Virus record (IMG/VR): IMGVR_UViG_3300036831_000090
Span: 1 to 54,879 of that record
Length of the DNA stretch: 54,879 nt
Reading direction: 5' to 3' (one strand)
Source of the DNA: a virus
Lineage: Duplodnaviria > Caudoviricetes
Under the pieces are notes generated by a model, which searched no databases, was not told the DNA's origin, and saw only the letters and a list, made by a program, of their open reading frames with translations. The position numbers were made by a program, and so were the translations under genes. Shown here piece by piece: positions 3,889 through 43,121 of this stretch. The number at the start of each line of letters is the position of its first letter. The stretch's first letter is position 1.

Positions 3889-4047
3889 CTAGTTTACTTT
3901 TAAGAGGAGCCAGCGGCCTTTCGGATCCCGTTTGACGCGGAATCCGAGATGCAAAATGAAGCCGGAGCTACACCAACGCTTGATGGTGATGGGATTTTTT
4001 TGATACTCGCGGGCTATCGTTGATACCGGAACCCAGTTCTCGGTCAT
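3889..4047 (-). CDS. Small Xis/MerR-like helix-turn-helix DNA-binding protein (52 aa)
   Basis: Not in ORF track. MTENWVPVSTIAREYQKNPITIKRWCSSGF...RDPKGRWLL; ATGA overlap with the portal stop. Confidence 0.65.
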   Translation of the reverse strand: MTENWVPVSTIAREYQKNPITIKRWCSSGFILHLGFRVKRDPKGRWLLLKVN

Positions 4048-8254: not shown

Positions 8255-8533
8255 TCAAATCGTAGTCTGATCTTCTTTTACTGCATAATTCCTGCCACGT
8301 ATTTTAGAAATTTTCCCGGTAGCGTCCGAACAGTTTAGGGTTTCTGGATCGAATTCAAATCCGAGGCAATCTCTGCCGATGAGTTTCAAAAGTTTATTTT
8401 GGTAATGACGCCAAAGGAATCTTTTCCAAATAGAATCAAGAATAATTCTGTTCCACATCTGTTCTTGATCTTCGGCATAACAGAGATTTTTTATTTTTAT
8501 CGCCGTAATCCTATAATCTTTATCCTCGCTCAT
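8255..8533 (-). CDS. AT-rich hypothetical protein (moron-like)
   Basis: 92 aa, visibly lower GC than flanks, ATGA overlap with terL stop. Confidence 0.55.
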   Translation of the reverse strand: MSEDKDYRITAIKIKNLCYAEDQEQMWNRIILDSIWKRFLWRHYQNKLLKLIGRDCLGFEFDPETLNCSDATGKISKIRGRNYAVKEDQTTI

Positions 8534-10332
8534 ATCCCCGCCAATCGGTCGATTTTCCTTCGGCCAGTGCCCTTCATAAAAGTTTGCTGCTGGTGACTCA
8601 GGCCCGCGCGTGTCATGTTATTCCAGAGTTCTTTCCGAAGCGTTCCCGCCATCTCATCTTTGGGCTGAATGTTCAGCGACGCCAACATTTCCTTCGGCGT
8701 GTTCGATTCCATCGTGTTTTTCGGAGCGTACTTGTATCGCGCAGGAGGATACTGTTCTTTCGTCAAAACCGCAATCATCCAGGCAACGGCAATGTCGTCG
8801 TGGTCGCGCATCACTTCCCAGCGCCATTCCTTGATGGTCATAAGCGCCAACTGGCTCATCAGGGCGCGGTCGTTGATGACCAGAGCTCCGGCTTCATTCT
8901 TGAGACCCATGCGGATTCCGCTTCGTGCGGCGTCGACGATCAGCCGGCGCGTCGCCTGATTCATTTCGAAGCCGAGAGCAAAACTCTTGTCCCGGCCGCG
9001 CTTGCGGTCGTCGCGGCCCTTCCAGCGGTAAATCTTTGGGTAGCGGTATTCGTCGCGCAACTTCACAAGCGCCCAGCGGCCCAGGTTTCCGGTGAGTTCG
9101 ACATTCACCATCGCGAGGTTGTAGAAGCGCCCGACCATATCGAGTTGCTGCGCGAGGACTTCGGGCGCGATGCGTTCGGCGAAGCGGCAGGCCAGTTCCC
9201 CGGTCTCGCCGCAAATGCCAACGTAAGCCGCGAAGTCCCCTTCCTCAGTTCCGAGCGCGGCGTCGGCGCCGAAGAAGTAATGCAATCCGTCGCTGCGCTT
9301 TTCCGGGTTGTAGGGAAACTTCCAAACGAATAGCGGTCCATTGTCGTCCTTCTCGAACACGACGCTGTTGTTTATGCCGCGGTGTAGCGATCCCCGCGCA
9401 ATAGGATCGCGCACCGTGCTCTCGGCGTAGGCCAATTCCTCGCGCGGGAACGCCGGGAATCCCGACACCTGAAAAGCGACTTCCGGACAATGTGGATAGT
9501 CGGTCAGCCACTTCACTTCCTGATCGCGGCAGTCGTCGGCCTTGGTTCGGCGCATCCATGCGATTTGCTCTCGGGTAGCATTGAACGGCGGAAGCATTAA
9601 TTCTTTTTCGAGGTCGTCTTTCGGGGCGTCGGAGGCTTCTTCTTCCGGTCGGCGGCACTGCGGGTCGTTCAGCCAGCCGAGGAACATCGGAATGTATCCG
9701 TTCGCGCCCTTGACGGCGTTATCCCAGTATTCCGAAAACGCGGCGCCGGGTCCTTCTCTGCCGTTCGCCGTCGATTCGATCACCACAATGGAGCCTTCGC
9801 CCTTCGACACCGAAGAAATCATGGCCGTAAACGATTCGTCCGACGGATAAAAGGCCGCCTCGCTGAGATGAAGTGCCGACAACGTGCCACCGCGCCCAGC
9901 CGACGGCGTTCCCGCGGTGGCCATCGTGATATTGCTTTCGCCGCCCTTGTGCGGGAATCGCAGCCGCTTTTGCTGTACGTCTTCGAGCGCGAAGCCGGGG
10001 AAGGCGCGCGACAGGTCGGACGGCACGCGGAAAAGCTCCTCGGCTGATCCCGCGAGGTGCGCCACGATCTTCGCGTTCATGTTCGGATAGGCGAGGCAGA
10101 AGGCCCACATCATTGCGTCGGTCTGAGCGGATACGCCGACGCGCCGGGCTTTAAGGTCAATGATGCGGATTTTCTTTTCGCGCTTCCACTGCTCGGACAT
10201 CACACGCCAACGGATATTCTGGTTGGGATTGAAATTGAACGAGGTCATGCGGTGGGTGCCGATGTCCTTGATCGGTAGGTGCGCGAGGAGTTGGCGGGAA
10301 CGGTGGAGCCAGTTTGGTTCTTCGGCTTTCAT
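8530..10332 (-). CDS. terL: Terminase large subunit
   Basis: LKARRVGVS (Walker A-like), LHLSEAAFY (Walker B), IESTANG coupling motif, RNase H-like FFGADAALG..GDF and HDD. Confidence 0.93.
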   Translation of the reverse strand: MKAEEPNWLHRSRQLLAHLPIKDIGTHRMTSFNFNPNQNIRWRVMSEQWKREKKIRIIDLKARRVGVSAQTDAMMWAFCLAYPNMNAKIVAHLAGSAEELFRVPSDLSRAFPGFALEDVQQKRLRFPHKGGESNITMATAGTPSAGRGGTLSALHLSEAAFYPSDESFTAMISSVSKGEGSIVVIESTANGREGPGAAFSEYWDNAVKGANGYIPMFLGWLNDPQCRRPEEEASDAPKDDLEKELMLPPFNATREQIAWMRRTKADDCRDQEVKWLTDYPHCPEVAFQVSGFPAFPREELAYAESTVRDPIARGSLHRGINNSVVFEKDDNGPLFVWKFPYNPEKRSDGLHYFFGADAALGTEEGDFAAYVGICGETGELACRFAERIAPEVLAQQLDMVGRFYNLAMVNVELTGNLGRWALVKLRDEYRYPKIYRWKGRDDRKRGRDKSFALGFEMNQATRRLIVDAARSGIRMGLKNEAGALVINDRALMSQLALMTIKEWRWEVMRDHDDIAVAWMIAVLTKEQYPPARYKYAPKNTMESNTPKEMLASLNIQPKDEMAGTLRKELWNNMTRAGLSHQQQTFMKGTGRRKIDRLAGI

Positions 10333-11295: not shown

Positions 11296-11385
11296 GCGGC
11301 CACTATAAAACCGCAACCGACATTTTCACAAGCGCTTTATTGGGAACCGTTGCGTATGCCCATCTAGTATGGTACGGTGTCGGCC
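11296..11385. promoter_or_regulatory. Divergent sigma70-like promoters for the virion arm (left) and glycan operon (right)
   Basis: Left: TTGTGA-18-TATAGT. Right: TTGCGT-17-TACGGT with TG extension; spacer contains CGTATGCCCATCTAGTA. Confidence 0.6.
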
Positions 11386-11559
11386 ATGAGAGGCAAGCTC
11401 ACAAGAGGAATTTGTAAGGTGCATTCTCGGCCGTTCCCGTGTTTGTCGTGTCGGGCAGCGAAGGGCGGGCGGGTGTCGTCGCCGAAGAAGACAGCGGCGA
11501 ATAGACTCAAATGTCGCGCAGCCGCGGCAGCAAGGTGGCATCCACAGGTGAGCAAGTGA
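11386..11559 (+). CDS. Small basic Cys/His protein, possible nucleic-acid binder
   Basis: MRGKLTRGICKVHSRPFPCLSCRAAKGG..SPKKTAANR; leaderless ATG. Confidence 0.55.
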   Translation: MRGKLTRGICKVHSRPFPCLSCRAAKGGRVSSPKKTAANRLKCRAAAAARWHPQVSK

Positions 11560-11689
11560 TCCGATTCCTGCGGGATTTATACCACCGATACGATAAATGG
11601 GTAATGGAAGTAGGTTACCTGCTGCATCCAGAATGGCGGAAGCTCGACGAAATGATCGCAATAATTGATAAATTAGAGAAAAACAAATC

Positions 11690-12124
11690 GTGATCGAGCG
11701 AGGACTTTGCGATGCGTGCGCGAACGGCAATCACTCCGCCTGTTCCAGTATCGGCTGCATCTGCGGGCACAGAATCGCAGAACGTAAACGGGAAGCTGTT
11801 CCACAAGGAACGTCGAGCACGTCGCCGCTCGTTTGCCCGAATTGCTCGAAGGTTCCGCGAAATGGAGACACGTTTTGCCGCGCCGACGGGTCACGACTGA
11901 CGCTTGGTAGCCGATGCTCCTGCGGGCATGGGATGGAACAAGAAGACTGGTTCTGCGGGGCGTGCGGTAAGCGGCGGGAAATACCGACGAAGCAATCGGA
12001 GCCCATCATCGACGGAAACGCGGAAATAGCCTCCGACGAATTCAAGCACATGGAAGAAGAACTGGCAGCGAAGGCCAAGGCCCGACCGTCGGACGTGGAA
12101 GTAGCGGCAACGGAGGTTCGATGA
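11690..12124 (+). CDS. Multi zinc-ribbon protein
   Basis: CDAC..H..C..CICGH, CPNC..FCRADG, CSCG..FCGACG. Confidence 0.7.
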   Translation: MIERGLCDACANGNHSACSSIGCICGHRIAERKREAVPQGTSSTSPLVCPNCSKVPRNGDTFCRADGSRLTLGSRCSCGHGMEQEDWFCGACGKRREIPTKQSEPIIDGNAEIASDEFKHMEEELAAKAKARPSDVEVAATEVR

Positions 12125-12387
12125 GCGAAATCACACAGGGACTTGTCGATCGGATTATCGCCGACCGCCCATTTAAGCTAAACGCCGAGGAAGTGAATTA
12201 CCGACCGGCCAATGGTGAGGACCCTTGCGACACCTGCATCCACCTGTTCAAGCGCGTGCTCGACGGATTCCACACTTGTGAAATTTTCAGAGATGAACAG
12301 ACAGACGAAAAGGGCGTCGACCCCACCTACGTCTGCGACTTCTGGAACGACGGAAAAGAGACCGAAGATGCGCACAGTAAATCCTGA
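12121..12387 (+). CDS. HiPIP-like four-Cys protein
   Basis: Y.....CDTC..F...CEIF....V....CDFW spacing resembles high-potential Fe-S proteins. Confidence 0.45.
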   Translation: MSEITQGLVDRIIADRPFKLNAEEVNYRPANGEDPCDTCIHLFKRVLDGFHTCEIFRDEQTDEKGVDPTYVCDFWNDGKETEDAHSKS

Positions 12388-12608
12388 TACCGTCGACTAC
12401 CTGATTGCCGCCGGCGTCGCCGCGCTGCTGTTTCTGTTCGCGTGGGTGATTCGGTGATCCCGAAACTCAAAGAACCGATTCCGCCACCGAAACCTGGATC
12501 AATCGTCGTATACGATGTGCCCAGTTGGCTTGACCGGAATTATAGGCTCATCATGCTTTTGTCGATGTTCGCGGAACTTGCTCTCCTCGCGGTCTTGGTG
12601 GTGCTCGA

Positions 12609-13208
12609 ATGGAAAAGGTAGACCTGTTTATTAGGACTTTCGAACCGGGAGTACCCGACCTCGGTTGGGGCAGCCTCGGCATCCGACGCGGGATGGCAAT
12701 GTCGGTTACGGCTCGATGGGCTCTCCAACCCGACGTGCATCCCACCATCTTGTGTAACGAATTTTACTCAACTGCGCTCGACATTCGAATCGTCGACCAT
12801 ATCGGCTTCCACATGAAAAGTAAGCGCGCCGCCGAGCGCCTGTCTAAGTCTCCTGTCTATGTGGTCTGCGACGATGACTGCTTAATCCTCCAAAAAAACT
12901 TTATTTCTATGGGCTTGATGGCGATGCGATCTTTTCCTGAATTCGGAATGATTGGTGGATGGAATATCACCGATGATCCTGACTGTTCGGGCCATGCTGG
13001 TTTAGTCGAGAAGGACCCCGGAGGGATTGTCTTCGTTCGCAAGGGAATTCTCACCGATTTCGAGGATCACGGTGCCGATAAAGTCGACGGATCACTGGCC
13101 GATGAAATGCGCCGGAAGGGACACAAGGTAGGCGTAACACAGGTGTCAAAATTTAATCACATTGGGTCCGGCTACTCTCTGACGAGCAAAGGAAACTGGA
13201 ACGCATGA
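12609..13208 (+). CDS. GT-A fold glycosyltransferase-like protein
   Basis: YVVCDDDCL (DxD), FVRKG, D..L...G.KV....H.G. Confidence 0.7.
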   Translation: MEKVDLFIRTFEPGVPDLGWGSLGIRRGMAMSVTARWALQPDVHPTILCNEFYSTALDIRIVDHIGFHMKSKRAAERLSKSPVYVVCDDDCLILQKNFISMGLMAMRSFPEFGMIGGWNITDDPDCSGHAGLVEKDPGGIVFVRKGILTDFEDHGADKVDGSLADEMRRKGHKVGVTQVSKFNHIGSGYSLTSKGNWNA

Positions 13209-13594
13209 GATTCAGTCCGAAACTAGAACCGTTTCGTTTGCGCGATGGTCCATACGCTTCTGATCCTGGCAGCGATTATGGTGCATTCTTAATCCCCGGT
13301 CCAAAAGGCGCAGACCTGCGCGTGATTGCCTCTCCCGGCGATGCCGACGAAAACATTCCTTGGGAACACGTCAGCGTCTCGACGACGCACCGATGCCCAG
13401 ATTGGCCGGAGATGTGTTTCATCAAAGAACTGTTTTGGGACGAAGAAGAAACCGTAATGCAACTTCATCCGCCGAAATCCCAATGGATCAACAATCACAA
13501 TTTCTGTTTGCATCTTTGGAAGCCGACGAATGCGGAGATTCCGCTTCCCCCTAGCAATACGGTGGGGAATAAAGAACTCGGCGTCCTGAAATGA
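13205..13594 (+). CDS. Conserved phage hypothetical protein
   Basis: WEHVSVS..RCP.W.EMC.IKELFW..EE.V.QLHP..CLHLW motif common in phages. Confidence 0.7.
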   Translation: MRFSPKLEPFRLRDGPYASDPGSDYGAFLIPGPKGADLRVIASPGDADENIPWEHVSVSTTHRCPDWPEMCFIKELFWDEEETVMQLHPPKSQWINNHNFCLHLWKPTNAEIPLPPSNTVGNKELGVLK

Positions 13595-14580
13595 AAAAAT
13601 CACTCGTGGTCACCACGATCCAAGCTCCGACCACCGCCATGCGCAAGCTGGCCGAGGGAGCCATCGCGCACGGGTTCGACTTCCACGTTGTCGGCGACGA
13701 GAAGACTCCCAAGGACTTTGATCTGTCGGGCGCGGCGTATTACGGCACGGGACTCCAATCCACATTGGAATTTAAGATCGTCTCCAAACTGTCACCGAAC
13801 AGCTACGCCCGTAAGAACATCGGATACCTAGTGGCGATGGGATTGGGTGCCGACATTATCAAGGAAACCGACGACGACAATTCGCCCCTGCCGACCTTTT
13901 GGAATGAACCGAAGCGAACCGTAAAAGCCTACATCCAACACAAATGCTGGGTGAATCCCTACCAGTGGTTTACGTCGTCGAAAGTGTGGCCGCGAGGACT
14001 GCCGCTCGATGAAGTGGGTCCGAAAGTTCTGTCGTCGGAGTCGGCGGATGCGGACTGCCCCATTCAACAGGGACTTGTGAACGGTGATCCTGACGTCGAC
14101 GCCATCTTTCGATTGACGGCCTTGCCGATGCGCGATTTTCGGGAGAGCGGGATCCGCATTGCTGTCGGCGAGGGAGCATGGTGCCCATTCAACAGTCAGA
14201 ACACGCTCTGGTTTCAGGATGCGTTTCCGCTGATGTATCTGCCGTCGACGTGCAGCATTCGGTTGACCGACATCTGGCGCAGCTTCGTCGCCCAGCGGAT
14301 TTGTTGGGAGCACGGATGGTCGGTGCTGTTTCATGGGCCGACCGCAGTTCAAGAACGAAACCCGCACAACTTGATGAGGGATTTTGAGCACGAGATTCCT
14401 GGCTACGTGTGGAACAAATATATCGCCGAACAACTGGAATCCCTGTCTCTTGGGAAGTCGATCGCGTCTGACTTGGTTGCTTGCTACGAACTCCTCTGCA
14501 AGATGGAGTTACTGACTCCGGCCGAAATGCCTATTCTCGAAGCGTGGCTTGAGGACGTAGGAGGATTATGGCAAAAGTAA
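13591..14580 (+). CDS. STELLO/DUF288-like glycosyltransferase
   Basis: VVTTI, VGDEKTP, SYARKNIGYL, ETDDDN, DPDVDAIFRL, PFNSQNT, R.TDIWRS, RNPH. Confidence 0.85.
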   Translation: MKKSLVVTTIQAPTTAMRKLAEGAIAHGFDFHVVGDEKTPKDFDLSGAAYYGTGLQSTLEFKIVSKLSPNSYARKNIGYLVAMGLGADIIKETDDDNSPLPTFWNEPKRTVKAYIQHKCWVNPYQWFTSSKVWPRGLPLDEVGPKVLSSESADADCPIQQGLVNGDPDVDAIFRLTALPMRDFRESGIRIAVGEGAWCPFNSQNTLWFQDAFPLMYLPSTCSIRLTDIWRSFVAQRICWEHGWSVLFHGPTAVQERNPHNLMRDFEHEIPGYVWNKYIAEQLESLSLGKSIASDLVACYELLCKMELLTPAEMPILEAWLEDVGGLWQK

Positions 14581-15926
14581 TTTTAGTTGGGGGTCCCTCA
14601 TTTGAGCTTTTTAATCCGTCGCTTCACGCTTCTCTCGGAACACTTTATCTCGGGGCCGCGCTCCGTGCTGCGGGCCATGAAGTCAAGATTCAGGACTGCC
14701 ATAAACTCTGCTCATTCGCAGATGGCAAGCTGGATGTGAACACGGACCTTCTGGAGCCGTGCGACGTGCTCGGTGTGTCGATCGTGACGCCCAACGCGGA
14801 GTTTGGCGGACAATTGGCCGCCGCTTGGCCGGCGAAATACAAGGTGGCCGGTGGCCCGCATGTAACCTACATCATTGAAGGCCCGCACGAGCAGTTCAAA
14901 AAGAAATCGTACTTCGAGGGATTCGACTACCTGATGACGGGAGAATGTGAGGAATCCTTTGTCGCATTTGTGGATGAAATTCGGCGAGGCGGGTCTGAAT
15001 CATCCCTTCGCCGTGTTCCTGGTGTGGTTTGGTTTGACGGTCTTGGTTATCACCACATGCCTTCTCCGCCTTTACCAGACGTCACGAAAATGGCCATGCC
15101 CGCGTACGACCTTTGGGAAAACTACTCCTCCGGCGGGCTCCAAGTCGCTTCCAAGAGCGGAAAGTCTATCGACGCCGAGGAACGGAAAATTGGTAGTCTT
15201 TGGACCGCGCGCGGTTGCCCATACGGGTGCCACTTCTGCGCCGACGCCCGCACCAAACTCCGCGAGGAAACCTTTGAGCAGATCGAGAGGGAAGTTAGGG
15301 CACTTGCCGACCTGGGAGTAACAGCGCTACGGGTGTGGGACGACGTGCTGACGATCAAGGACAAGCGATGTCGGGAACTAGCGGCCCTGTTCCATGACTA
15401 CGGGATGCTGTGGCGCGGCTGGAGCCGGGTGAACCTGATGAATCCGACACTGTTCCAGTATCTCGCCACGAAGGGTTGCACGGAGATGGGATTTGGTGTT
15501 GAGCACGGCTCTGCTCGGATGCTGAAGGAAATGAACAAGGGAACGACGCCCGAAGCCAACGAGAAGGGCATCAAGATTTGTCAGGATGCGGGAATCGTAG
15601 CGCGAGCCTACCTGCTCATCGGCTTTCCCGGCGAAACGTGGGAGTCGATCTACGAGATGCGGGATTGGCTGGCGCAGGTAATGCCGGATGCGGCGAGTCT
15701 TCACAGTTTTCAACCCTACCCAGGGTGCGATGTCTGGAACCGTCCGGAACATTATGGCGTGAAGGTTTCCGCGCAAACATTTTCTTCCATGTGGGAACTG
15801 TCCGAAGACGAAAGCACCTGCACGCTGGAAATTCCGACGATGACGAAATCAGAAGTAGTCGAGGCCCGCAAGTATCTACACGAATGGATCACTGAAAACA
15901 TTTCCCTGCGACCCGTGAACCGATGA
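14568..15926 (+). CDS. B12-binding domain radical SAM protein (class B methyltransferase-like)
   Basis: N-terminal LGTLYLGAALR..GHEV..D and GGPH.T; RGCPYGCHFC (CxxxCxxC); GVEHGS, IGFPGET. Confidence 0.92.
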   Translation: MAKVILVGGPSFELFNPSLHASLGTLYLGAALRAAGHEVKIQDCHKLCSFADGKLDVNTDLLEPCDVLGVSIVTPNAEFGGQLAAAWPAKYKVAGGPHVTYIIEGPHEQFKKKSYFEGFDYLMTGECEESFVAFVDEIRRGGSESSLRRVPGVVWFDGLGYHHMPSPPLPDVTKMAMPAYDLWENYSSGGLQVASKSGKSIDAEERKIGSLWTARGCPYGCHFCADARTKLREETFEQIEREVRALADLGVTALRVWDDVLTIKDKRCRELAALFHDYGMLWRGWSRVNLMNPTLFQYLATKGCTEMGFGVEHGSARMLKEMNKGTTPEANEKGIKICQDAGIVARAYLLIGFPGETWESIYEMRDWLAQVMPDAASLHSFQPYPGCDVWNRPEHYGVKVSAQTFSSMWELSEDESTCTLEIPTMTKSEVVEARKYLHEWITENISLRPVNR

Positions 15927-16615
15927 ACCTGTCCGTCGTGATGACCACAAGGAACGACTCCCGGCAGGCGAATTTCCTGCAAGCGATTCGGCAATTCAAG
16001 AAACTGGATGCGGAGATCGTGGTCGTCGAGTGGCATCCGCTCCTGAACAACCAACCTTTGTGGAACACGGTCGAAGGCGTTCGTATTATCACCGTGCCCG
16101 GCGACGGCAAGTTCGAGGAATTTAAGGCCAAGAATGTCGGCATCCGTCGGGCGAAGGGAGACTTTATCCTCTCGACCAATCCCGACATCCTTCTCTCGCA
16201 GGAAATGATCGACTGGCTGAATCAGGTTCCTACGAAGTTGCGACAGGATTGTTTCTATCGGGCGAACCGGCACGACCTCGATGAAGAAGGAAATGTTTTC
16301 AACATCCACCGGAATACGATGTGCGACCGCGTACACCACACGAATGCCGCGGGCGACTTCATGCTGATGCACCGCAGCCAGTGGGATTATTTGCGGGCAT
16401 ACCTGGAGCTAGAAACTACTGATATGGTCGACGCCTATATCATCCACCACGCAATCCGGCGCAGCGCGTTGAAACAAGTAATCCTCGAAGAACCGATCTA
16501 CCATCTGCCGCATCCCGTGAGTTTTACTCCGAGCGCCGTGTTTCGCGACGAAATGAATAATTCGTGGAACGAAGAAAGTTGGGGCATGGCCGGAGTCGAG
16601 TTGGAGGAATCTTGA
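15923..16615 (+). CDS. GT2-like glycosyltransferase
   Basis: LSVVMTTRND, EIVVVEW, AKNVGIRRAKGDFILSTNPDI, GDFMLM. Confidence 0.8.
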   Translation: MNLSVVMTTRNDSRQANFLQAIRQFKKLDAEIVVVEWHPLLNNQPLWNTVEGVRIITVPGDGKFEEFKAKNVGIRRAKGDFILSTNPDILLSQEMIDWLNQVPTKLRQDCFYRANRHDLDEEGNVFNIHRNTMCDRVHHTNAAGDFMLMHRSQWDYLRAYLELETTDMVDAYIIHHAIRRSALKQVILEEPIYHLPHPVSFTPSAVFRDEMNNSWNEESWGMAGVELEES

Positions 16616-17613
16616 AAGTTGCGGTCCTCAGTCCGACGGTCCTTGCGATCTACGAAAAGATGGCGGTCCTGTTTCCCGACGAGGGAATTGATGTGGTCGG
16701 CCCGCGCATCGACGACAACCCGCCCGAGCGGCTGTTCGAGATTCAACGCCGTGTGCGCGAGTGGGCGGAAGTTGGGCTTCAGATTCGATTCGTCGACAAA
16801 CCGTACTCCGAGATTGATTTCTCCGGCTACGACTTGCTAATCGAAACCGTGGAAACCTTTCAGTACGCCGAGGATTGGAAAAACCACTGCACCCGCGTCG
16901 AATGCCCGATCATCGTATCGTCCTGCTGGTACGATTCTCCGCGCACGCTAATTCCGTCGGGATATATCGAAGCCGTGAGGAAGTTTCCAGTCGTCGTGCA
17001 GATGCCAGCGAACTTAGCGGGATGGCGGGCTTCTCCGTTTGCCGATGTCACGGCTATCGTCAATCCGGTCGGCGAGTGGTACTTCGATGAGCCGTGGACG
17101 GGCGACAACGGTAAAGCTCTCTACGTTCTTGCTGGCAAAGACCTGTGGCGTCCCGCGGATAAGCGTGTACTGGGGCTCGACATTGTGGAGCGATTGCAAG
17201 AGCGGTTCCCCAGCCGGATTCTACACCACGACGGCGCCGTAAACTACCTGACGCCGAAAGAACTGGGAAAGTTGTATGCTTCGTCGCGCGTGTTCCTGCA
17301 ACTGGATGATCCGGATTCGGGAAGGCCGCTGTGCGGAACTTTTACCGAGGCGGTCGCGGTCGGGTGCCCGGTGCTGACGAAATCATCGACAGCAATGGAC
17401 TACACGAAATACGTGAACGGAAACGGATTGATGACGAACGACTTCGAGCAGATGTGTACGTTCATCAATCTTCTGTTCACCGATGATTCGCTGGCGCAAA
17501 TCGCCAGTCACAACGGTCGCGAAATAGGACGAGAACATTTCTCCTACGCCGCCGTCCGACCCCAGTACGACGCCCTGATCCACCGCGCCCAGGAGGCGTT
17601 TCGAAGCCGATGA
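16612..17613 (+). CDS. GT-B (GT4-like) glycosyltransferase
   Basis: LYASSRVFL..., EAVAVGCPVL, NGL, F.......Y..L C-terminal pattern; TTG start after GGAGG. Confidence 0.8.
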   Translation: MKVAVLSPTVLAIYEKMAVLFPDEGIDVVGPRIDDNPPERLFEIQRRVREWAEVGLQIRFVDKPYSEIDFSGYDLLIETVETFQYAEDWKNHCTRVECPIIVSSCWYDSPRTLIPSGYIEAVRKFPVVVQMPANLAGWRASPFADVTAIVNPVGEWYFDEPWTGDNGKALYVLAGKDLWRPADKRVLGLDIVERLQERFPSRILHHDGAVNYLTPKELGKLYASSRVFLQLDDPDSGRPLCGTFTEAVAVGCPVLTKSSTAMDYTKYVNGNGLMTNDFEQMCTFINLLFTDDSLAQIASHNGREIGREHFSYAAVRPQYDALIHRAQEAFRSR

Positions 17614-18443
17614 TCTCCATTCTCTTGCCGAGCCGCAAACGTGGTCCTGAACTGCTACGAATGGTCTCATCTATTTGGACGACGAAGGCCACTCCTAAAA
17701 TTGAAATCGTAATTCGGTTTGATGAAGATGACACAGAGACTATCTACGGATTTAGGAATCACGGCGATTGGACAACTCTTGATATTAAAATTCTGGTCGG
17801 CCCACGAATCCGAAAAAGGACCCAGTACTGGAATGAGTGTTTTACGGCATGCTCTGGAGACATTGTGTGCCAGGCCAATGACGATTGTGTCTGGAGAGAT
17901 GACGGATGGGATTTGCTTGTCGAGAACGCATTCGCCGAATGCCCCGACCAGATTCTCGTGGTCCACGGAGACCACCTTGGCGGATATGACGGCAGACTCT
18001 TTGGTCCGCATCCATTTACCAGCCGCAAGTGGGTTGAGACCGTCGGTTACTTCACGCCGCCACACTATTCTTCCGACCACGGGGATACTTTTTTGAACGA
18101 TGTAGCGAACGCGCTCGGACGCCGCAGATTCTTGCCGTTCGTCCTGGAACATATGCATTTCGGCACAGGCAAGTCGGAACTCGATGAAACCTATCGCGAC
18201 AGGCTGAAAGACCATGACGAAGATAACCCCGAGGCACTATACGTGTCGCATCTGCCGGAGCGCGTTGAAGCGGCCAATAAACTTGGAGCCGTGATGGTTC
18301 CCCCTCGCAGAATCATAGCGTCGCGCTTTAGTCCGCACCGCGGCGCTGGTGAATGTCCTAAGTGTCAATCGCAGTCGACCGTGTTTCAGGATAATGGTAT
18401 CGCTTGTAATTCTTGCGGCCATCGGTGGGCGTTCCGACGATGA
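17610..18443 (+). CDS. GT2-like glycosyltransferase with C-terminal zinc ribbon
   Basis: ISILLPSRKR, ANDD..W...GWD, EHMH; tail CPKC..CNSC. Confidence 0.8.
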   Translation: MISILLPSRKRGPELLRMVSSIWTTKATPKIEIVIRFDEDDTETIYGFRNHGDWTTLDIKILVGPRIRKRTQYWNECFTACSGDIVCQANDDCVWRDDGWDLLVENAFAECPDQILVVHGDHLGGYDGRLFGPHPFTSRKWVETVGYFTPPHYSSDHGDTFLNDVANALGRRRFLPFVLEHMHFGTGKSELDETYRDRLKDHDEDNPEALYVSHLPERVEAANKLGAVMVPPRRIIASRFSPHRGAGECPKCQSQSTVFQDNGIACNSCGHRWAFRR

Positions 18444-18456
18444 ATCAGAGGATTTT

Positions 18457-18882
18457 GTGAAAGCTAGGGGACCCGATAACGGAAAGTTTAAGCACGGCCA
18501 CAACGGTGCGTCAGGGAAAAGTCCGACGTATATCTCATGGGACATGATGCTCCACAGGTGCAGCAATCCCAAATACGGTGCGTATAAATTCTACGGCGGG
18601 CGTGGTATTCGAGTCTGCAAACGGTGGAGAGTATTTCATAATTTTCTAGCCGACATGGGTGAAAGGCCAGTGGGGACTAGTTTGGATAGAATTAAGACCA
18701 ATGGGAATTATGAGCGTTCAAATTGCCGATGGGCCACGCCATCTCAGCAGCATAGGAACATGAGAAGTAATATCTGGATCGAGACCGATGGAAAGAGGTT
18801 GATTTTAGCGGACTGGGCCAGATTGCTGCGAGTGAATCGTGAAACACTACGGCACCGGTACAAGGTTGGCCTATGGCCTTAA
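18457..18882 (+). CDS. Free-standing HNH homing endonuclease-like protein
   Basis: YGGRGIRVCKRW..F.NFLADMGERP...SLDRI..NGNY...NCRWAT; GTG start with GAGG. Confidence 0.85.
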   Translation: MKARGPDNGKFKHGHNGASGKSPTYISWDMMLHRCSNPKYGAYKFYGGRGIRVCKRWRVFHNFLADMGERPVGTSLDRIKTNGNYERSNCRWATPSQQHRNMRSNIWIETDGKRLILADWARLLRVNRETLRHRYKVGLWP

Positions 18883-19547
18883 AATGGCAGATTCTAACTC
18901 TTACGATGCCGACGCGAGTGGAATTCCTCGCAGGTCTAAGGAAAATACTAGAACCTCAGTTGAGGGATGGTGTCGAGTGGATTGTGAAGGTGAGTGACCC
19001 ATCCATTTCTCTCGGTGCGAATCGGGAACAGATGCGTCGAGATTCCACGGCTGAATATATAAATTTTTGCGATGATGATGACGAATTGAGTCCGAACTAT
19101 GTGGCCCGTATCCTACCGCTCTTAGATCGAGATTATGTTGGCTTCTGGCTGCAGGCTTTCGAAGACGGCGTACCACTTCCCAAGAGAACGAAACACTCCC
19201 TGACCTGCAATGATTGGTTCGAAGGCGATCAATTTTATGGGCGGGATATTTCACATTTGAACCCCATAAAACGGGAACTTGCAATTCAGGTTCCGATTTA
19301 TGGTGGCTTCGGAGAAGATTCGCGGTGGGCTGGAGACATTCGAAAACTAAAGATCGTACAGACCGAACGGTTCGTCGACGACGTGATGTATTACTACTAC
19401 TCGCGGACCGACAAAACGGATGGAGTGAAACCCGGTAGATTCAGTGCCGGAGTTTGCCCGCACTGCGGTAGTGAGTCGACGGTCGTAGTGGACCGCGAGA
19501 TGGTTTGTAACGCTTGCGCTGCCCGTTCTGAATTTCATATTTCCTAA
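18873..19547 (+). CDS. GT2-like glycosyltransferase with C-terminal zinc ribbon
   Basis: ILTLTMPTR, SLGANR, EYINFCDDDD...YV, GED..W; tail CPHC..CNAC. Confidence 0.8.
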   Translation: MALKWQILTLTMPTRVEFLAGLRKILEPQLRDGVEWIVKVSDPSISLGANREQMRRDSTAEYINFCDDDDELSPNYVARILPLLDRDYVGFWLQAFEDGVPLPKRTKHSLTCNDWFEGDQFYGRDISHLNPIKRELAIQVPIYGGFGEDSRWAGDIRKLKIVQTERFVDDVMYYYYSRTDKTDGVKPGRFSAGVCPHCGSESTVVVDREMVCNACAARSEFHIS

Positions 19548-19555
19548 GAGGGTGA

Positions 19556-20359
19556 ATGAGAATCTGCGTTGTCGGACTCGGGAAAGTGGGCCGTCCGTTA
19601 CTCGAAACCTTGCGCCGCTTCCACGGCCAGGTGGTTGGCTACGACATCAAGCCTTCCGTGTCCGAGGGTTCCGTATCCCAGTGCGTCACCGCTTCCGACT
19701 GCGCCATCTTCATCGTGCAGACGCCATCGAAGGAAGACGGATCGTTTTCGAATGATTATCTTTTGTCGGCGCTTCGCGCCTTTAAGGCCGCGGCCGGCAA
19801 GCAGGGGAAGGACCACTACCTGTTCATCGTTACGAGCACGACCGTCCCGGGATCGTGCGAGGAGTTTTCGAAGATTGTCGGGAAGCGGCTGGTCTACAAC
19901 CCGCTGTTCATCCGGCTGGAGTTCATCGACGAGGATCTTCTGAATCCCAGTTTCCTTTTGTTCGGGGCGTCGAATCCTGATTACGCGATAGAAGCGCTTT
20001 CCATCTACCGGCCGATTACCGCCTGCCCGTCGATCACGATGACATGGACCGAGGCCGAGCTCGCGAAGATCACCTTGAACTGCGCGCTGACCGCTAAAAT
20101 TTCTCTCGCGAATCAGTTGTACCTGGTGGCCGAGCGGATGGGATGCAACCCGAAGAAGATCATGCAGGCAGTCGGCATGGACCCGCGCATCGGTCAAGCC
20201 TACCTGACTCCTGGCTGGCCATTTTCCGGTCCGTGCCTGCCCCGCGATGGACGTATGTTTCAATACGTCGCCGACAAAGCGGGAACCGACGCGCCGCTGG
20301 CCGCCGCCGTCGACGAAATCAACAACCGCATGTATCGGGCGATCGTGAGGAAAAAATGA
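19556..20359 (+). CDS. UDP-glucose/GDP-mannose dehydrogenase family protein (N-terminal and central domains only)
   Basis: VGLGKVG Rossmann, VQTP, STTVPG, YNP, AELAK..N..KISLAN, DPRIG, catalytic GPCLPRD. Confidence 0.88.
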   Translation: MRICVVGLGKVGRPLLETLRRFHGQVVGYDIKPSVSEGSVSQCVTASDCAIFIVQTPSKEDGSFSNDYLLSALRAFKAAAGKQGKDHYLFIVTSTTVPGSCEEFSKIVGKRLVYNPLFIRLEFIDEDLLNPSFLLFGASNPDYAIEALSIYRPITACPSITMTWTEAELAKITLNCALTAKISLANQLYLVAERMGCNPKKIMQAVGMDPRIGQAYLTPGWPFSGPCLPRDGRMFQYVADKAGTDAPLAAAVDEINNRMYRAIVRKK

Positions 20360-20601
20360 GACGCATTATGTTTGTCGCGCTTCTAACGCTGCTTTCCGGA
20401 TGTACCTATGCGAGCCATTCGACGAAAGTTCTGCTCGACGAAGGATATACCGATATTCACATCACTGGCTGGAGACCGTTCTCCTGTGGAGAGGGTGATT
20501 TTTATATGACCGGATTTAGCGCCAAAGGGCCATCGGGACGTCCTGTTACGGGCGTGGTTTGCGAAGGATTGTTCAAAAGCGCAACGGTGCGGCTCGACTG
20601 A
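20356..20601 (+). CDS. Small phage lipoprotein
   Basis: MRRIMFVALLTLLSGC lipobox. Confidence 0.75.
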   Translation: MRRIMFVALLTLLSGCTYASHSTKVLLDEGYTDIHITGWRPFSCGEGDFYMTGFSAKGPSGRPVTGVVCEGLFKSATVRLD

Positions 20602-21347
20602 TGACCAACGACTCGAAAAAGTTCTGGCAAGAGCATCCCTGCGAGGCGTGGCACTCGCGTTCCGAAATCGGAACACGCGAATGGTCCGACGAAATCTCCA
20701 ACTGGCGCTACTTCGTGCAGCCGCACATCCCGCGCTTCGCGGAGTTCGGTAAGTGGCGAGGGAAAAGCGTCTTGGAGATCGGAACAGGGATCGGCACGGA
20801 TGCCTTGCGTTTTGGGGCCGCTGGCGCAAATGTTGTGGCGATTGACTTCTCCGGACATTCGATCGACCTAGCCAAAGGACGGCAGCGCAGATCTCAAATC
20901 GACTTCGAAATGTGGAACAGCGCCGAGGAAGACCTGCCGACCGGAAAATTCGACCTGATCTATTCCTTCGGGGTGCTGCATCATATGCGCGATCCCCTGG
21001 CCTGCCTGAAACTCGCGCGGCAGCGAATCAAGGCCACCGGCGAACTGCGCATCATGCTCTATGCCCGCTGGAGCCTGAAATTCCTCACCGGCCAGCAGCC
21101 GGAAGCCGCCGCGGGATGCCCGATCGTGAAACTCTACAGCGCGCGCACCGCCACGAAGCTACTCGCCGACGCCGGATTCGGAGTCATCGGCATCAAGAAA
21201 ACCCATGTGTTTCCGTGGGATGTGAAAGCCTACCGCGAAGGACAGTTCATTCCCCGCCGACTATACCGCTTCATGCCCGATGGGGTTTTTCACTGGCTGG
21301 AGTCGGTCGCGGGCCACCACCTCTTGATTTCTGCCCGACCGATCTAA
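20601..21347 (+). CDS. Class I SAM-dependent methyltransferase
   Basis: VLEIGTGIGTD, FDLIYSFGVLHH. Confidence 0.9.
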   Translation: MTNDSKKFWQEHPCEAWHSRSEIGTREWSDEISNWRYFVQPHIPRFAEFGKWRGKSVLEIGTGIGTDALRFGAAGANVVAIDFSGHSIDLAKGRQRRSQIDFEMWNSAEEDLPTGKFDLIYSFGVLHHMRDPLACLKLARQRIKATGELRIMLYARWSLKFLTGQQPEAAAGCPIVKLYSARTATKLLADAGFGVIGIKKTHVFPWDVKAYREGQFIPRRLYRFMPDGVFHWLESVAGHHLLISARPI

Positions 21348-21652
21348 AGAAAAGCGCGTCGATCGCGGCAACCCCTAGTCCAAGGACCTGTTAAATCGGT
21401 GATCCTCCAGTATTTTAGGGCTCGAAGAATCGCTTCCTCGTCGCGTTCCACCGAATAGATCGCAACTTGCTCTCCGCGCGTCAGACAAAAGTAATCCTGA
21501 ACTTCGGCCGCGCGTTCAGATTCCTCCGTTAGATCCGGGTTGCATTCGCACACCGTAATTCTACGCGGAAGTGGGATGTGCATAATGGGAGGGGCATCTC
21601 TCCAACTTTTCGTTTCTCCGGCAATCGGCCCGTCAATATAAACCTGAATCAT
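21344..21652 (-). CDS. Hypothetical protein
   Basis: 102 aa, YIDGP..G motif. Confidence 0.55.
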   Translation of the reverse strand: MIQVYIDGPIAGETKSWRDAPPIMHIPLPRRITVCECNPDLTEESERAAEVQDYFCLTRGEQVAIYSVERDEEAILRALKYWRITDLTGPWTRGCRDRRAFL

Positions 21653-21912
21653 TTTCTAGGATCCAGCGTTCCGCACCGCACGCACCGGCCGCGCTCGAAC
21701 TGGTGCCGCTTGCGCCGCTGGCCGTCGACGATGCACTCGCGTTTCATTTTTCGCGTTCCAAAATTTCATTCATCTTTGCCAGTTGGAGCGCAATCTCGAT
21801 GAGGGTAACAGCATTCAACTCACTGAGCGAGTATACCAGTTGGCCGTTATTTCGACCCTTGATTTCCTAATTAAAGGCCAGTTCGGCACGCTCTAATTCT
21901 TCCGGCTTCATA

Positions 21913-22110
21913 TCAGTACCTCTCGTCGGCCTTGCGGTACTTGTCGAAATTGAACTTCCCCGACTTCAGCCCCGGCGCCGTCTCAATCAAATGCCGAAAC
22001 TCCCGGCACGACCGGCACCCGCAATACTGCCATTGCGACTTCGCGGTATGAACCTCGGTCGCGACAAACTCTGCCCGCGCCGGCATCACCGCCATCTGTC
22101 CGCTAAACAT
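21913..22110 (-). CDS. Small protein with CGCRSC motif
   Basis: 65 aa, H....Y.GCRSC. Confidence 0.45.
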   Translation of the reverse strand: MFSGQMAVMPARAEFVATEVHTAKSQWQYCGCRSCREFRHLIETAPGLKSGKFNFDKYRKADERY

Positions 22111-22612
22111 TCTTCGCCGCCTTTATTTTCGGTTGCCCGAAACAGAATCCGCAGTATTGATCCTTGCTTCTTCCGTGGGCGCACGTCGGAATTGATTTCG
22201 AAATACTTCCAGAATCGTCCGCACGAGGCCCGTCTTCGCGTCCGGCACGTACCGCACGATGTCGCCCGACAGCAGCTCTCTTTCGACCACTTCCACGATC
22301 TCCGCTCCCCACCGCTCCGCCGCCGGCACCAACTCCCGCCTCAGCCTCCCCGTCGCGTCCATCCACGGCGGCCGCACCGACACCTCGCCCCACAGACTCT
22401 CCGGACATAGGCTCCCGTCCTCCATCCGCCAGAACCTCCGAACCACGCCGCACATCCGGTACTCGATCGCTTCCATTGCTCTCCCTTGGACTGGGCTCGC
22501 CCAACTTCCACTTCATCCAACCCGCCACACTTTTCCCGTTCGCTTTCGCCGCGGCCTTCCACTTCCCCAACTCCTCTACCCCTACCCGCAGCTTGAACGT
22601 CGTCTGTTCCAT
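22103..22612 (-). CDS. Ribbon-helix-helix (CopG/Arc-like) regulator with disordered middle and C-terminal Cys/His motif
   Basis: MEQTTFKLRVGVEELGKWKAAAKANGKSVAGWM; C-terminal CAHG....CGFC; leaderless start. Confidence 0.65.
   Translation of the reverse strand: MEQTTFKLRVGVEELGKWKAAAKANGKSVAGWMKWKLGEPSPRESNGSDRVPDVRRGSEVLADGGREPMSGESVGRGVGAAAVDGRDGEAEAGVGAGGGAVGSGDRGSGRKRAAVGRHRAVRAGREDGPRADDSGSISKSIPTCAHGRSKDQYCGFCFGQPKIKAAKNV
22123..22476 (-). CDS. Nested out-of-frame hypothetical protein (117 aa)
   Basis: Own RBS AAGGGAG before ATG; globular-looking composition; lies entirely within the RHH ORF. Confidence 0.5.
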   Translation of the reverse strand: MEAIEYRMCGVVRRFWRMEDGSLCPESLWGEVSVRPPWMDATGRLRRELVPAAERWGAEIVEVVERELLSGDIVRYVPDAKTGLVRTILEVFRNQFRRAPTEEARINTADSVSGNRK

Positions 22613-22679
22613 GTGGGTACATCTACCGCAGTGTGGGTACATCGTCAACCGTTTTTTGTGGGTACGAATGTGGGTACAT
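22611..22679 (-). promoter_or_regulatory. Promoter TTGACG-17-TAGATG overlapped by four GTACCCACA direct repeats (putative RHH operators)
   Basis: tgtgggtac at 22612, 22632, 22657, 22669. Confidence 0.7.
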
Positions 22680-22980
22680 TTGGCTTGGGCATGAAATTGG
22701 CCTATCGTGCGCAAACCCTTGGCTAGAGGATTCCCCCGTAGTCGCCGGTGAAGTCCCGGCCCCTCGCGCATTCGCCGATGGGTACCTAGATTTGCGGTGG
22801 TTTACGGGCTCGAACGAGCGCCGCGGGAGCGCTGCCGAACGCCTGCCAATCGTGCGCCGATGTGCTGCCCATCCCGTGCCCATCCAAATGCCCAGCTTGC
22901 TACAGGAATCGACGCGTGTAAACCAGTAGCATTACTATGTAAGTGTATTGTTATGTTGGCGTGGCTGAGAGTGTAAGATT

Positions 22981-23223
22981 CTAACCCTGCAGCATCTTGC
23001 GTTCGAACGCGCGTTGAGCTTTGACCGCTCGGGCTTTCGCGCACGGATCAGTGATTCCACGCGCGCGGTAAGCTGCCTGCGACCTGCGGCCGGAGAGAAT
23101 TGCGAACAGCCGCAAACCAAGCGCGCGCCGTTCTTCAATGGACATGCGCGTGAGTTGTTCTTTGCGTCCAATTCGCATGGCCATCGTACGCTCTGTGACA
23201 GTCTTTTGTGGTTTGCGGTCCAT
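22981..23223 (-). CDS. Basic hypothetical protein (80 aa)
   Basis: MDRKPQKT...; extended -10 TGCTAGGAT 7 nt before ATG. Confidence 0.5.
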   Translation of the reverse strand: MDRKPQKTVTERTMAMRIGRKEQLTRMSIEERRALGLRLFAILSGRRSQAAYRARGITDPCAKARAVKAQRAFERKMLQG

Positions 23224-23387
23224 ACGGAGCATCCTAGCAGGTTCTAGTGTCGAATCAGCAGTCGAAATCGGATGATTGGCGCTTAAATGACAAGGGATTA
23301 GCGTCGAAGTGTCGGGAATCGGGGGCTGTGGTGTCGGATTCTTGCGCCGGGGTGCGCATAAGTCTTTTAGAGGCGTGTTTCTACCGG

Positions 23388-23434
23388 CGTGCCCAACTAT
23401 TCCCTTGACAATTCGTATGCCCAACTAGTAAGAT
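23388..23434 (+). promoter_or_regulatory. Early promoter TTGACA-18-TAAGAT with two GCCCAACTA motifs
   Basis: -35 at 23405-23410, -10 at 23429-23434; motifs at 23391 and 23419. Confidence 0.7.
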
Positions 23435-35903: not shown

Positions 35904-36206
35904 TCAGATTTTGCTGATGCTAACAAAATTCCCGAGTACGGAAGCAATTCCCTTGACGATGGCCAGCGCTTTCGGCGTCGGCTTCTTCAGTTCGTTTACT
36001 TCGTAGCTAACACCTGAATCCACGTCCTGAGTGGTCTGTTTAGCCGCTTCCATTTCTTCGGCGGCGTTGCCGATAAGCGTCCCGAGTTTACCCGCGAGCG
36101 GCGATAAATCAATCTGCAAAGCATGAAGCAGTAACCCAAGCGCCACGAGAGCGAACGCGGCGGCGAGTAGGACGATGATCTTTCCGACGAGCCAAATGAT
36201 CTTCAT
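35904..36206 (-). CDS. Membrane-anchored protein (spanin-like position)
   Basis: N-terminal TM, amphipathic tail, follows lysozyme. Confidence 0.5.
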   Translation of the reverse strand: MKIIWLVGKIIVLLAAAFALVALGLLLHALQIDLSPLAGKLGTLIGNAAEEMEAAKQTTQDVDSGVSYEVNELKKPTPKALAIVKGIASVLGNFVSISKI

Positions 36207-40788: not shown

Positions 40789-40803
40789 TGACTCGAAAAC
40801 CCC

Positions 40804-43104: not shown

Positions 43105-43121
43105 CGTTTGGGAAACCTCCT

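Follow-up and report, generated by a model that had tools for sequence, protein, structure and literature searches.

What an uncultured soil phage builds with its own set of sugar enzymes, and on what the product is placed, is the question raised by the plus strand at 11.4-21.3 kb of the IMG/VR record IMGVR_UViG_3300036831_000090. The window, meaning the whole stretch of 54,879 bases that was analysed, is the genome of an uncultured podovirus-like phage from soil. Four GT-A fold and one GT-B fold glycosyltransferase (GT) genes, a homologue of the GT75 mutases, a radical S-adenosylmethionine (SAM) enzyme, a nucleoside-diphosphate (NDP)-sugar dehydrogenase and a SAM-dependent methyltransferase form a translationally coupled run there, where, from 11386 to 21347, neighbouring genes overlap by 1-49 bases at 12 of 16 junctions and the remaining gaps measure 8, 16 and 54 bases. 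An earlier note on this DNA had described the run as coupled and had named these gene classes, and Pfam matches and ESM Atlas models found all of them where the note had put them; among its roughly six glycosyltransferase-like genes, four GT-A and one GT-B held, whereas the STELLO-like one is a GT75 mutase homologue. Since homologues of the cluster genes recur in related phages, the comparison indicates that the cluster is a genuine gene set and not a chance run of open reading frames (ORFs). We suggest, with a probability of roughly 45%, that it is a cytoplasmic glycan assembly line which glycosylates the phage's own virion proteins.

The cluster enzymes appear to be soluble, as no transmembrane helix was found in any of them on the Kyte-Doolittle scale. 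Six-frame searches of the whole genome gave no match to Bac_transf, Glycos_transf_4 or Polysacc_synt (the GtrA family itself was not searched) and none to Phage_integrase or Resolvase, which agrees with the earlier observation that a flippase or a Gtr-type enzyme with many transmembrane helices is missing. Because the enzymes are soluble and a priming transferase, a flippase-type transporter and an integrase were not matched, virion-protein glycosylation in the cytoplasm by a virulent phage fits this gene set. Gtr-type serotype conversion of the O-antigen uses membrane GtrA/GtrB and a transferase with many transmembrane helices, and accompanies lysogeny. While it is likewise a phage-encoded sugar transfer that alters a surface glycan, the window lacks an integrase as well as enzymes that span the membrane or act on lipid carriers, and so far as can be judged from sequence, serotype conversion is excluded.

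The virion is the best-supported target because one transferase resembles those of known phage glycosylation cassettes and because, in SU10-like podoviruses, a related module lies between capsid and adaptor genes. The transferase, denoted GT2b (18873-19547, plus strand), is a GT2 enzyme with a C-terminal zinc ribbon (Pfam; phrog_14775, E 1e-27). It matched 41 of 50,697 cultured-phage records, 39 of Mycobacterium phages and 2 of the Actinoplanes phage phiAsp2. Identity to Che8 gp108 was 29% over 147 residues (E 1e-14); with Che9d gp109 (E 4e-16) included, the range was 29-31% over 147 residues, and phiAsp2 Pas33 was 36% identical over 87% of the query. GT2b alone was detectably homologous, the other window transferases showing no similarity to those of the Che8 and Che9d cassettes. 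Che8 gp108 and Che9d gp109 are the first genes of three-transferase runs at the genome end, and Pas33-35 is a transferase-methyltransferase-transferase cassette just after the tail genes. According to PMC12363180, glycosylated proteins have been detected in Che8, Corndog and Myrna, the assembly of the actinobacteriophage glycan on capsid and tail proteins takes place in the cytoplasm, and Che8 gp110 and Corndog gp38 are named as essential, gp110 for capsid glycosylation, the last point being that of a secondary source. The cassettes of Che8, Corndog, Myrna and phiAsp2 share with the window soluble phage GT2-type transferases and often a methyltransferase, and they lie near structural genes. 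In contrast, the window adds a radical SAM enzyme, a GT75 homologue and a dehydrogenase, which are unannotated in the cassette stretches compared; it is podovirus-like, carries five or six transferase-like genes and is known from its genes alone, whereas glycoproteins were seen in the actinobacteriophages.

The window cluster borders on the terminase end, though on the other strand, and the counterpart module stands beside structural genes in all five SU10-like relatives (L100-L104). There, a fused double GT2, a radical SAM enzyme 50-52% identical to that of the window, and a dehydrogenase (412-437 residues) or an epimerase occur together, accompanied by a methyltransferase in L102 and L103 and a GT2b homologue in L103 and L104. 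The module is downstream of the capsid gene in 5/5 and directly upstream of the adaptor gene in 4/5. In L100, L103 and L104, it shares its strand with the flanking capsid and adaptor genes, among which an unannotated ORF of ~750 residues occupies the portal position; L104 also has a terminase fragment.

To place the cluster in its own lineage, we collected 13 close loci through the radical SAM gene and 14 through the terminase, giving 20 distinct contigs. Fifteen were informative, with cluster and terminase arm both visible; L013 was left out for want of a terminase, and L146, L151, L153 and L156 for having little upstream DNA. The cluster was present in all 15, each time on the terminase strand, and on this comparison it is a fixed feature of the phage lineage. 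The usual order in relatives is dehydrogenase, methyltransferase, GT75, radical SAM, 230-residue GT-A, GT-B, GT2a and GT2b, while in the window the block is inverted and the dehydrogenase and methyltransferase are shifted to its end. Single losses occur, since L009 has no dehydrogenase and methyltransferase and L004 no GT75 and 230-residue GT-A. Identity to the window was 89-97% for the capsid, 73-81% for the portal, 64-80% for the terminase and 73-76% for the radical SAM enzyme, so that the last is about as conserved as the terminase; it was 32-60% for the transferases and 25-30% for GT75. Divergent transferases on a conserved capsid are the pattern to be expected of a diversifying surface structure.

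The other transferases are less specific in what they indicate. The proteins encoded at 12609-13208 (199 residues) and 15923-16615 (230 residues), both on the plus strand, had no Pfam match and were assigned as GT-A-like from ESM Atlas models that correspond exactly to the window's proteins. The 199-residue model reached a template modelling (TM) score of 0.76-0.80 to GT2 clusters, and its homologues occur in L004, L013 and L148, in the last of which the gene follows that of an 88-residue Cys-rich protein on the same strand. The 230-residue model scored 0.74-0.89 to GT2 and Glyco_transf_7C clusters, with a weak PDB profile match to the GT2 domain of heparosan synthase (E 0.05); its homologues in relatives are 32-37% identical. 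The GT-B gene (plus strand) has its longest ORF at 16564-17613 and a likely TTG start at 16612, giving 16612-17613. Its Pfam match to Glyco_trans_1_2 (E 4e-4) was below the cut-off and its profile matched the C-terminal domains of GT4 enzymes (best E 3.9e-4), with 46-49% identity in relatives; a GT4-like enzyme is probable, the assignment being weak yet consistent. GT2a (17610-18443, plus strand; Pfam; phrog_14945, E 4e-26) is a second GT2 with a C-terminal zinc ribbon, and its DxD and CPxC...CNxC motifs were invariant across 12 sequences. Its model, with a predicted local distance difference test (pLDDT) of 70, best matched RmlT, TarP/TarS, WrtF and heparosan synthase, which are GT-A enzymes of the wall-teichoic-acid or O-antigen type, yet the fold search returned generic GT-A matches alone and none naming an acceptor class.

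These matches raise an alternative that we consider rather unlikely, in which the enzymes act on lipid-linked or finished surface glycans of the host (lipopolysaccharide, capsule or exopolysaccharide), with priming and export left to the host. Such remodelling could block superinfection, change the biofilm matrix or stop progeny phages from adsorbing again to debris. Besides the GT2a matches, it draws on the usual make-up of surface-polysaccharide pathways, in which soluble GT2 and GT4 enzymes, methyltransferases, dehydratases and NDP-sugar dehydrogenases are standard, and on the whole GDP-6-deoxyhexose pathways of larger relatives. In the contigs L099 and L108-L111 (55-131 kb), the radical SAM gene is surrounded by GDP-mannose 4,6-dehydratases, epimerases, TylC3-type C-methyltransferases and other methyltransferases, with a sugar-1-phosphate nucleotidyltransferase in L109 and a GT75/RGP mutase in L111. 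The replication-side position of the cluster in close relatives is compatible with early or middle expression, and GT2a homologues occur in mixed contexts. Two ORFs within the window cluster also fit the envelope, a small membrane ORF and an 81-residue predicted lipoprotein (20356-20601, plus strand) whose translation has a signal peptide with a lipobox-like Cys; against this, no homologue of the lipoprotein was found in any of 27 loci searched, so that it is unique to the window genome. Moreover, no priming transferase, flippase or enzyme with many transmembrane helices was matched genome-wide, the absence of an integrase argues against lysogenic conversion, the structural matches of GT2a reflect the fold in general, and the SU10-like module follows the capsid gene and mostly precedes the adaptor gene.

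The radical SAM enzyme (14568-15926, plus strand) is assigned to the class B type, with a putative B12-binding domain. While the Radical_SAM core was matched by Pfam with 64.9 bits (E 1.3e-17), the B12-binding domain, also part of the earlier description, reached 28.4 bits and remained under the 32.1-bit cut-off. The CX3CX2C motif (C217, C221, C224) was invariant in 16 homologues. The model (pLDDT 86.9) matched MgmA and AprD4 (TM 0.72-0.74), TsrM, CysS, OxsB and TokK over the full length, and the window enzyme resembles these class B members in its two-domain fold and in CX3CX2C. It differs from them in belonging to a virus-centred family and in its low identity, about 21% at most, to any solved radical SAM enzyme. 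Considering that AprD4-like enzymes have the same fold, the fold alone cannot show bound cobalamin, and the fold search gave no separation between methylase and dehydratase types. AprD4 (PDB 6fd2), from apramycin synthesis, acts on an aminoglycoside sugar, and GenK-type methylases are further members of class B, whose enzymes tailor sugars or other unactivated carbons.

In a large protein database, the family comprised at least 120 protein clusters at ≥48% identity (119 at ≥50%), found on contigs that measure about 50-60 kb, 120-130 kb or as much as 335 kb. Among 185,579 species genomes, the best matches were at most 30% identical (33% over shorter partial stretches), two Acidobacteriota excepted; the matches were obtained by a search with alignment, a single-protein scan having given none. 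By this distribution, the family is virus-centred. The exceptions are two contigs of Acidobacteriota metagenome-assembled genomes (L019:10001-11365 and L020:9153-10061) with copies 69-71% identical to the window enzyme, where the radical SAM gene alone resembles phage; they may point to gene exchange and perhaps to the host phylum, which we treat as a lead only. Bacterial genes surround these copies (ethanolamine ammonia-lyase, GreA, a TonB-receptor plug and a histidine kinase), and an integrase fragment adjoins the gene in L019. In 25 of 25 viral loci at ≥50% identity, the radical SAM gene adjoins glycosyltransferase or NDP-sugar genes within about 6.5 kb, and on that ground we propose that the family acts on sugars. 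A further proposal, which we put forward tentatively and hold to be somewhat doubtful, is that this virus-centred family catalyses an undescribed sugar reaction that feeds a virion glycocalyx widespread in tailed phages of soil and water.

Around the radical SAM gene of other phages, further observations were made. In L111:8300-10717, on the same 119-kb contig as L014, the radical SAM ORF has 805 residues and contains an Intein_splicing match (E 3e-12); an intein in a sugar-pathway enzyme would be unusual and would underline the conservation of the enzyme. In L112:9187-9983, genes of the IscA-type Fe-S_biosyn and NifU_N families lie directly upstream of the radical SAM gene, and this phage seems to bring cofactor-assembly help for the enzyme. 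A protein family of ~305-345 residues stands beside the gene in L099, L108, L109 and L110, with up to three paralogues per locus; it had no Pfam or PDB match and a probability of 0.6% in hhalign against a GT-B family, and may be a new transferase family. The larger phages have a second companion family of ~230 residues with a weak SpsA match (E 0.3).

NCBIfam offered no family above its cut-off for the radical SAM protein. Its weak matches include families that act on ribosomally synthesized and post-translationally modified peptides (RiPPs), for example ApyD with E 3e-27, far under the cut-off. A RiPP- or glycocin-like function was rejected, as the gene neighbourhoods hold NDP-sugar and glycosyltransferase genes and not peptide-maturation genes. 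The same matches would favour the broader idea of a natural-product-like pathway, which releases a diffusible compound directed at the host or at competitors, be it through tailoring as in aminoglycoside or nucleoside antibiotics or as a glycosylated peptide. This idea draws on the closest characterised relatives of two enzymes, which come from antibiotic pathways (MtdL/Hyg20 and AprD4), and on several small ORFs ahead of the enzymes. We nevertheless regard it as very unlikely: Pfam and NCBIfam scans brought up no scaffold-forming enzyme, transporter or resistance gene, the constancy of the sugar-gene neighbours speaks against peptide maturation, 14 of 15 relatives encode the conserved small proteins on the opposite strand, and no phage precedent turned up, though no search was aimed at one.

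The gene at 13591-14580 (plus strand), where Pfam gave a partial STELLO match (E 5.5e-9), encodes a divergent homologue of the GT75 NDP-pyranose mutases. The window protein alone matched MtdL (PDB 7yua, also 7xpr) at residues 59-275 with E 2.3e-24 in phmmer, and a profile of the window protein and five relatives matched it over 3-342 with E 2.2e-95. Functional residues were read from the alignment to MtdL, with their roles taken from PMC9937993, which lists for MtdL the DXD motif, the catalytic and autoglycosylated Arg159, Asp195, Ser228-Gln229, Arg257 and Asp260, and names Thr13 and Ser86 as favouring GDP-sugars. The window protein keeps a DDD motif (D94-D96), R135, D168, S202-Q203 and the Arg and Asp227 of the RxxD stretch, as well as the equivalents of Arg289, His292, Thr13 and Ser86. 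It has lost two residues, with Tyr72 at the position of Asp87 and Gln254 at that of the Mn ligand His287. The same source states that D87N/S abolish the activity of MtdL while active plant RGPs have Ser at this position, and that the inactive AtRGP5 has Tyr there and does not conserve His287. Because of the two losses, we file the protein as a GT75 homologue and not as an active mutase; it is probably inactive or altered as a mutase. The relatives' copies (such as L006:8773-9798), to which it is 24-28% identical, keep both the Asp and the His and for this reason are probably active, making NDP-furanose. The resemblance to MtdL/Hyg20 and to the plant RGP/UAM proteins extends over the full length with most key residues kept, whereas the setting is a phage here and the plant Golgi or an antibiotic cluster there, MtdL and Hyg20 acting in A201A and hygromycin A synthesis (PMC9937993). 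A published phage GT75 module of this kind was not found in a search that covered titles and abstract openings of part of the literature.

A reduction is also seen in the NDP-sugar dehydrogenase (19556-20359, plus strand; 267 residues). Pfam matched its N-terminal NAD-binding domain (PF03721, E 5.8e-11) and its central domain (PF00984, E 5.3e-25), and TIGR03026 was matched at positions 71-303 of 413 with 155 bits against a cut-off of 189.8. The translation has a Gly-rich N-terminus and, in the central domain, a Cys which we take to be the catalytic one. The enzyme is similarly short in close relatives, where window residues 2-256 to 2-262 were matched. The dehydrogenase proposed earlier therefore stands with two of its domains and is truncated at the C-terminus. 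Since the C-terminal nucleotide-sugar-binding domain is lacking, the uronic acid step is weakened; it is plausible, though less certain than the name dehydrogenase implies. The methyltransferase (20601-21347, plus strand; longest ORF from 20559) is a class I SAM-dependent enzyme, as had been expected (Pfam Methyltransf_23, E 1.3e-18; phrog_22502, E 2e-41), and is 40-52% identical in relatives.

Read as a pathway, the short dehydrogenase may oxidise a sugar to a uronic acid, while GT75 would supply an NDP-furanose in relatives and looks degenerate in the window. The B12-type radical SAM enzyme would then modify a sugar by radical chemistry, C-methylation, deoxygenation or a ring change being the likeliest, four GT-A enzymes and one GT-B enzyme would add sugars stepwise, and the methyltransferase would cap a hydroxyl or carboxyl group, so that virion proteins would be decorated during assembly. 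Substrates, order of steps and acceptor are what we infer here, and gene content, folds, conservation and lack of membrane enzymes are what we observed. The methylated, uronic-acid-containing oligosaccharide envisaged in the earlier note fits this inventory and a cytoplasmic location, while its uronic acid part hangs on the reduced dehydrogenase.

Several results weigh against the glycosylation of virion proteins. No acceptor motif was found, and Ser/Thr-rich virion proteins, the acceptor pointed to in the earlier note, fell away as a guide, because Ser plus Thr at 23-26% in the tail proteins is generic and identifies no acceptor. The homology to Che8 gp108 is modest. Pfam gave no PF03720 match for the dehydrogenase, and with one domain missing there and two catalytic residues missing in GT75, the enzyme names may be misleading for part of the pathway. 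The genome layout is likewise not that of a unit paired with virion genes throughout the lineage. A divergent intergenic region of 90 bp (11296-11385) does separate, as had been described, the minus-strand virion and terminase arm from the plus-strand genes in the window, between GTG 11295 of a 91-residue gene on the minus strand and ATG 11386 of a conserved 60-residue gene; the back-to-back geometry of cluster and virion operon, in contrast, was found in 0/15 relatives and is peculiar to the window genome. What diverges from the virion arm in relatives is a unit of small zinc-protein genes and not the cluster, and the cluster there follows small genes diverging from the clamp-loader (replication) side, wherever upstream DNA is present. 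One sigma-70-like site lies inside the 90-bp region on the minus strand (11331 to 11302), but the promoter and terminator scan did not rise above chance (5 promoters against 7.2 expected, 20 terminators against 13.9) and is therefore uninformative on transcription units. Lastly, some homologues keep company with genes of replication or nucleotide metabolism. GT2a homologues of Streptomyces Gilsonvirus lie between recombination genes, a deoxynucleoside monophosphate kinase and a 5' nucleotidase; that of pelagiphage HTVC008M is beside ribonucleotide reductase, in a run where a methyltransferase and a UDP-glucose dehydrogenase also occur; SF3 has the nearest radical SAM protein of a cultured phage (26% identity), encoded beside thymidylate kinase and NUDIX genes; and a cytosine-methylase fragment lies inside the cluster of L009 and an N6/N4 DNA methylase near that of L112.

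The Gilsonvirus, SF3, L009 and L112 contexts would be expected if the sugars were destined for nucleic acid, that is, if the transferases, perhaps guided by their zinc ribbons, glycosylated replicated phage DNA against restriction at an attachment point created or tailored by the radical SAM enzyme and the methyltransferase. The invariant C-terminal zinc ribbons of two GT2 enzymes and the homing endonucleases and intein that crowd the cluster would suit this possibility, and an oligosaccharide-like thymidine modification exists in phage YerA41 (PMC9023294). T4-type DNA glucosylation likewise employs soluble phage glycosyltransferases, and it requires a hydroxymethylase or Tet/JBP and usually a phage polymerase; the window genome differs in that none of these prerequisites was matched. 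Six-frame searches of the whole genome gave no match to a Thymidylat_synt-type hydroxymethylase, DNA_pol_A or DNA_pol_B, in line with the earlier note, and none to Tet_JBP, a weak blank, since its control was silent in every genome. No known route to a glycosylatable base was thus found. Besides, five or six transferases and a furanose mutase imply an oligosaccharide, which by our reasoning would be hard to fit into a 55-kb podovirus head; GDP-6-deoxyhexose and C-methyl-sugar pathways surround the radical SAM gene in relatives and are, to our knowledge, unknown in DNA modification; and the module follows the capsid gene in SU10-like relatives. Modification of DNA is hence highly improbable in our view.

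Chloroviruses and giant viruses encode their own cytoplasmic glycosyltransferases, sugar-nucleotide enzymes including UDP-glucose dehydrogenase, and methyltransferases, and carry unusual methylated capsid glycans. The likeness to the window lies in this gene content and the difference in their being viruses of eukaryotes; we know of no radical SAM enzyme in their capsid glycosylation. As far as we found, virion glycosylation of phages has been demonstrated mainly in actinobacteriophages, where it shields particles from antibodies, and a literature search of partial coverage returned no paper that joins phage, radical SAM, glycosyltransferase and capsid glycosylation. The cluster reads as a phage glycosylation cassette that is set apart by its radical SAM enzyme, GT75 homologue and reduced dehydrogenase and by belonging to a new phage lineage. 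If glycosylation of virion proteins is correct, it would reach beyond the actinobacteriophages to an unrelated lineage of podoviruses whose soil hosts are probably Gram-negative and whose enzyme set is much richer, with a radical SAM enzyme, a domain-reduced dehydrogenase and a homologue of furanose-forming mutases. Such glycans could affect adsorption, stability in soil and recognition by host defences; if the glycan were on the host envelope or on DNA instead, the finding would be rarer still. Should a virion glycocalyx be widespread, it would span 50-kb podoviruses to phages of more than 120 kb and would not be an actinobacteriophage speciality, and the fast evolution of the transferases, set against a capsid conserved at 89-97%, would be the sign of an arms race on the surface of the particle. 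Being abundant in metagenomes, always tied to sugar genes and without an assigned reaction, the radical SAM family is a concrete target for enzymology.

Several genes of the region were absent from the earlier list, namely a unit of small zinc or Cys-rich proteins of 60, 144 and 88 residues, a DUF7694 gene, an HNH endonuclease and the lipoprotein ORF. The unit (11386-12387, plus strand) opens with a small basic Cys-containing protein of 60 residues (11386-11559; ORF from GTG 11377, ATG 11386), whose product was 65-85% identical by tblastn in 9 relatives, each time adjoining the 144-residue gene. The latter (11690-12124) encodes a double zinc-ribbon protein (Pfam DZR, E 8e-4, below cut-off) that is 36-44% identical in relatives, there on the strand opposite the cluster. 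It is overlapped by 4 bases by the gene of the 88-residue Cys-rich protein (12121-12387), which is 45-57% identical in relatives and had no family match in the Pfam, PHROG and NCBIfam scans. In 14 of 15 relatives the unit is conserved between cluster and terminase arm, on the strand opposite to both and always divergent from the arm, and in L004 the cluster is directly upstream of the arm. These proteins may be regulators or parts of the glycosylation system.

Downstream of the unit, the 59-residue ORF at 12442-12621 (plus strand) has one predicted transmembrane helix (Kyte-Doolittle 2.71) and gave weak tblastn matches alone (E 5e-5 to 4e-3), so that it is doubtful as a gene. The DUF7694 protein (13205-13594, plus strand; Pfam E 2.5e-27; phrog_7839) is accessory and outside the conserved core, its only homologue among relatives being in L009 at another position. 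The homing-type HNH endonuclease (18349-18882, plus strand; phrog_3377, E 1e-42) is inserted between GT2a and GT2b; its likely GTG start at 18457 would turn the 16-base junction gap into 13. HNH homologues sit at three different cluster positions in relatives, and single relatives carry insertions of a GIY-YIG gene, an RNA ligase or a cytosine-methylase fragment. The lipoprotein ORF overlaps the dehydrogenase stop and the methyltransferase start; it may be a moron and may hint at a diderm host. Given this ORF and the Acidobacteriota link, the host is probably a Gram-negative soil bacterium.

The record is estimated to be 98% complete, and its ends carry a 126-base exact direct repeat (bases 15-140 equal to 54754-54879), from which the genome is probably complete and either circularly closed or terminally redundant. 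The phage DNA was matched in a single sequencing run, a soil metagenome that is probably its source, and in no RNA run among those listed. The structural arm on the minus strand crosses the record ends. By PHROG and Pfam scans, it includes the major head protein (619-1623), an SU10/P22-like portal (4044-5771), the large terminase (8530-10332), a lysozyme (36203-36619) and large tail proteins of the beta-helix type, the tail fibre or spike proteins lying at 37480-44498, while a clamp-loader-like ATPase, RecT, a primosomal or replication-initiation protein and an RNase H-type nuclease are on the plus strand. No tRNA gene was detected in the genome. Megablast of the region against the 50,697 phage records gave zero matches, hence no cultured relative at the DNA level, and terminases of cultured phages reach no more than about 25% identity to that of the window. 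PADLOC returned weak generic matches alone (PDC-M51A, E 2e-9; mad2, E 2e-11).

Between the cluster and the clamp-loader gene lies a minus-strand island (21344-23424) with ORFs of 102, 222 and 147 residues, for which Pfam and PHROG gave no family match. The 222-residue ORF is rich in Gly, Ala and Arg and may not be a real gene, and homologues of two island ORFs sit upstream of the cluster on the same strand in relatives. The large terminase of L010, L011 and L012 (twins L157-L159) is split by about 1 kb at residues ~282/~281. In L011:17925-20768 it forms a single ORF of 947 residues, and the insert looks like an intein or another in-frame insertion.

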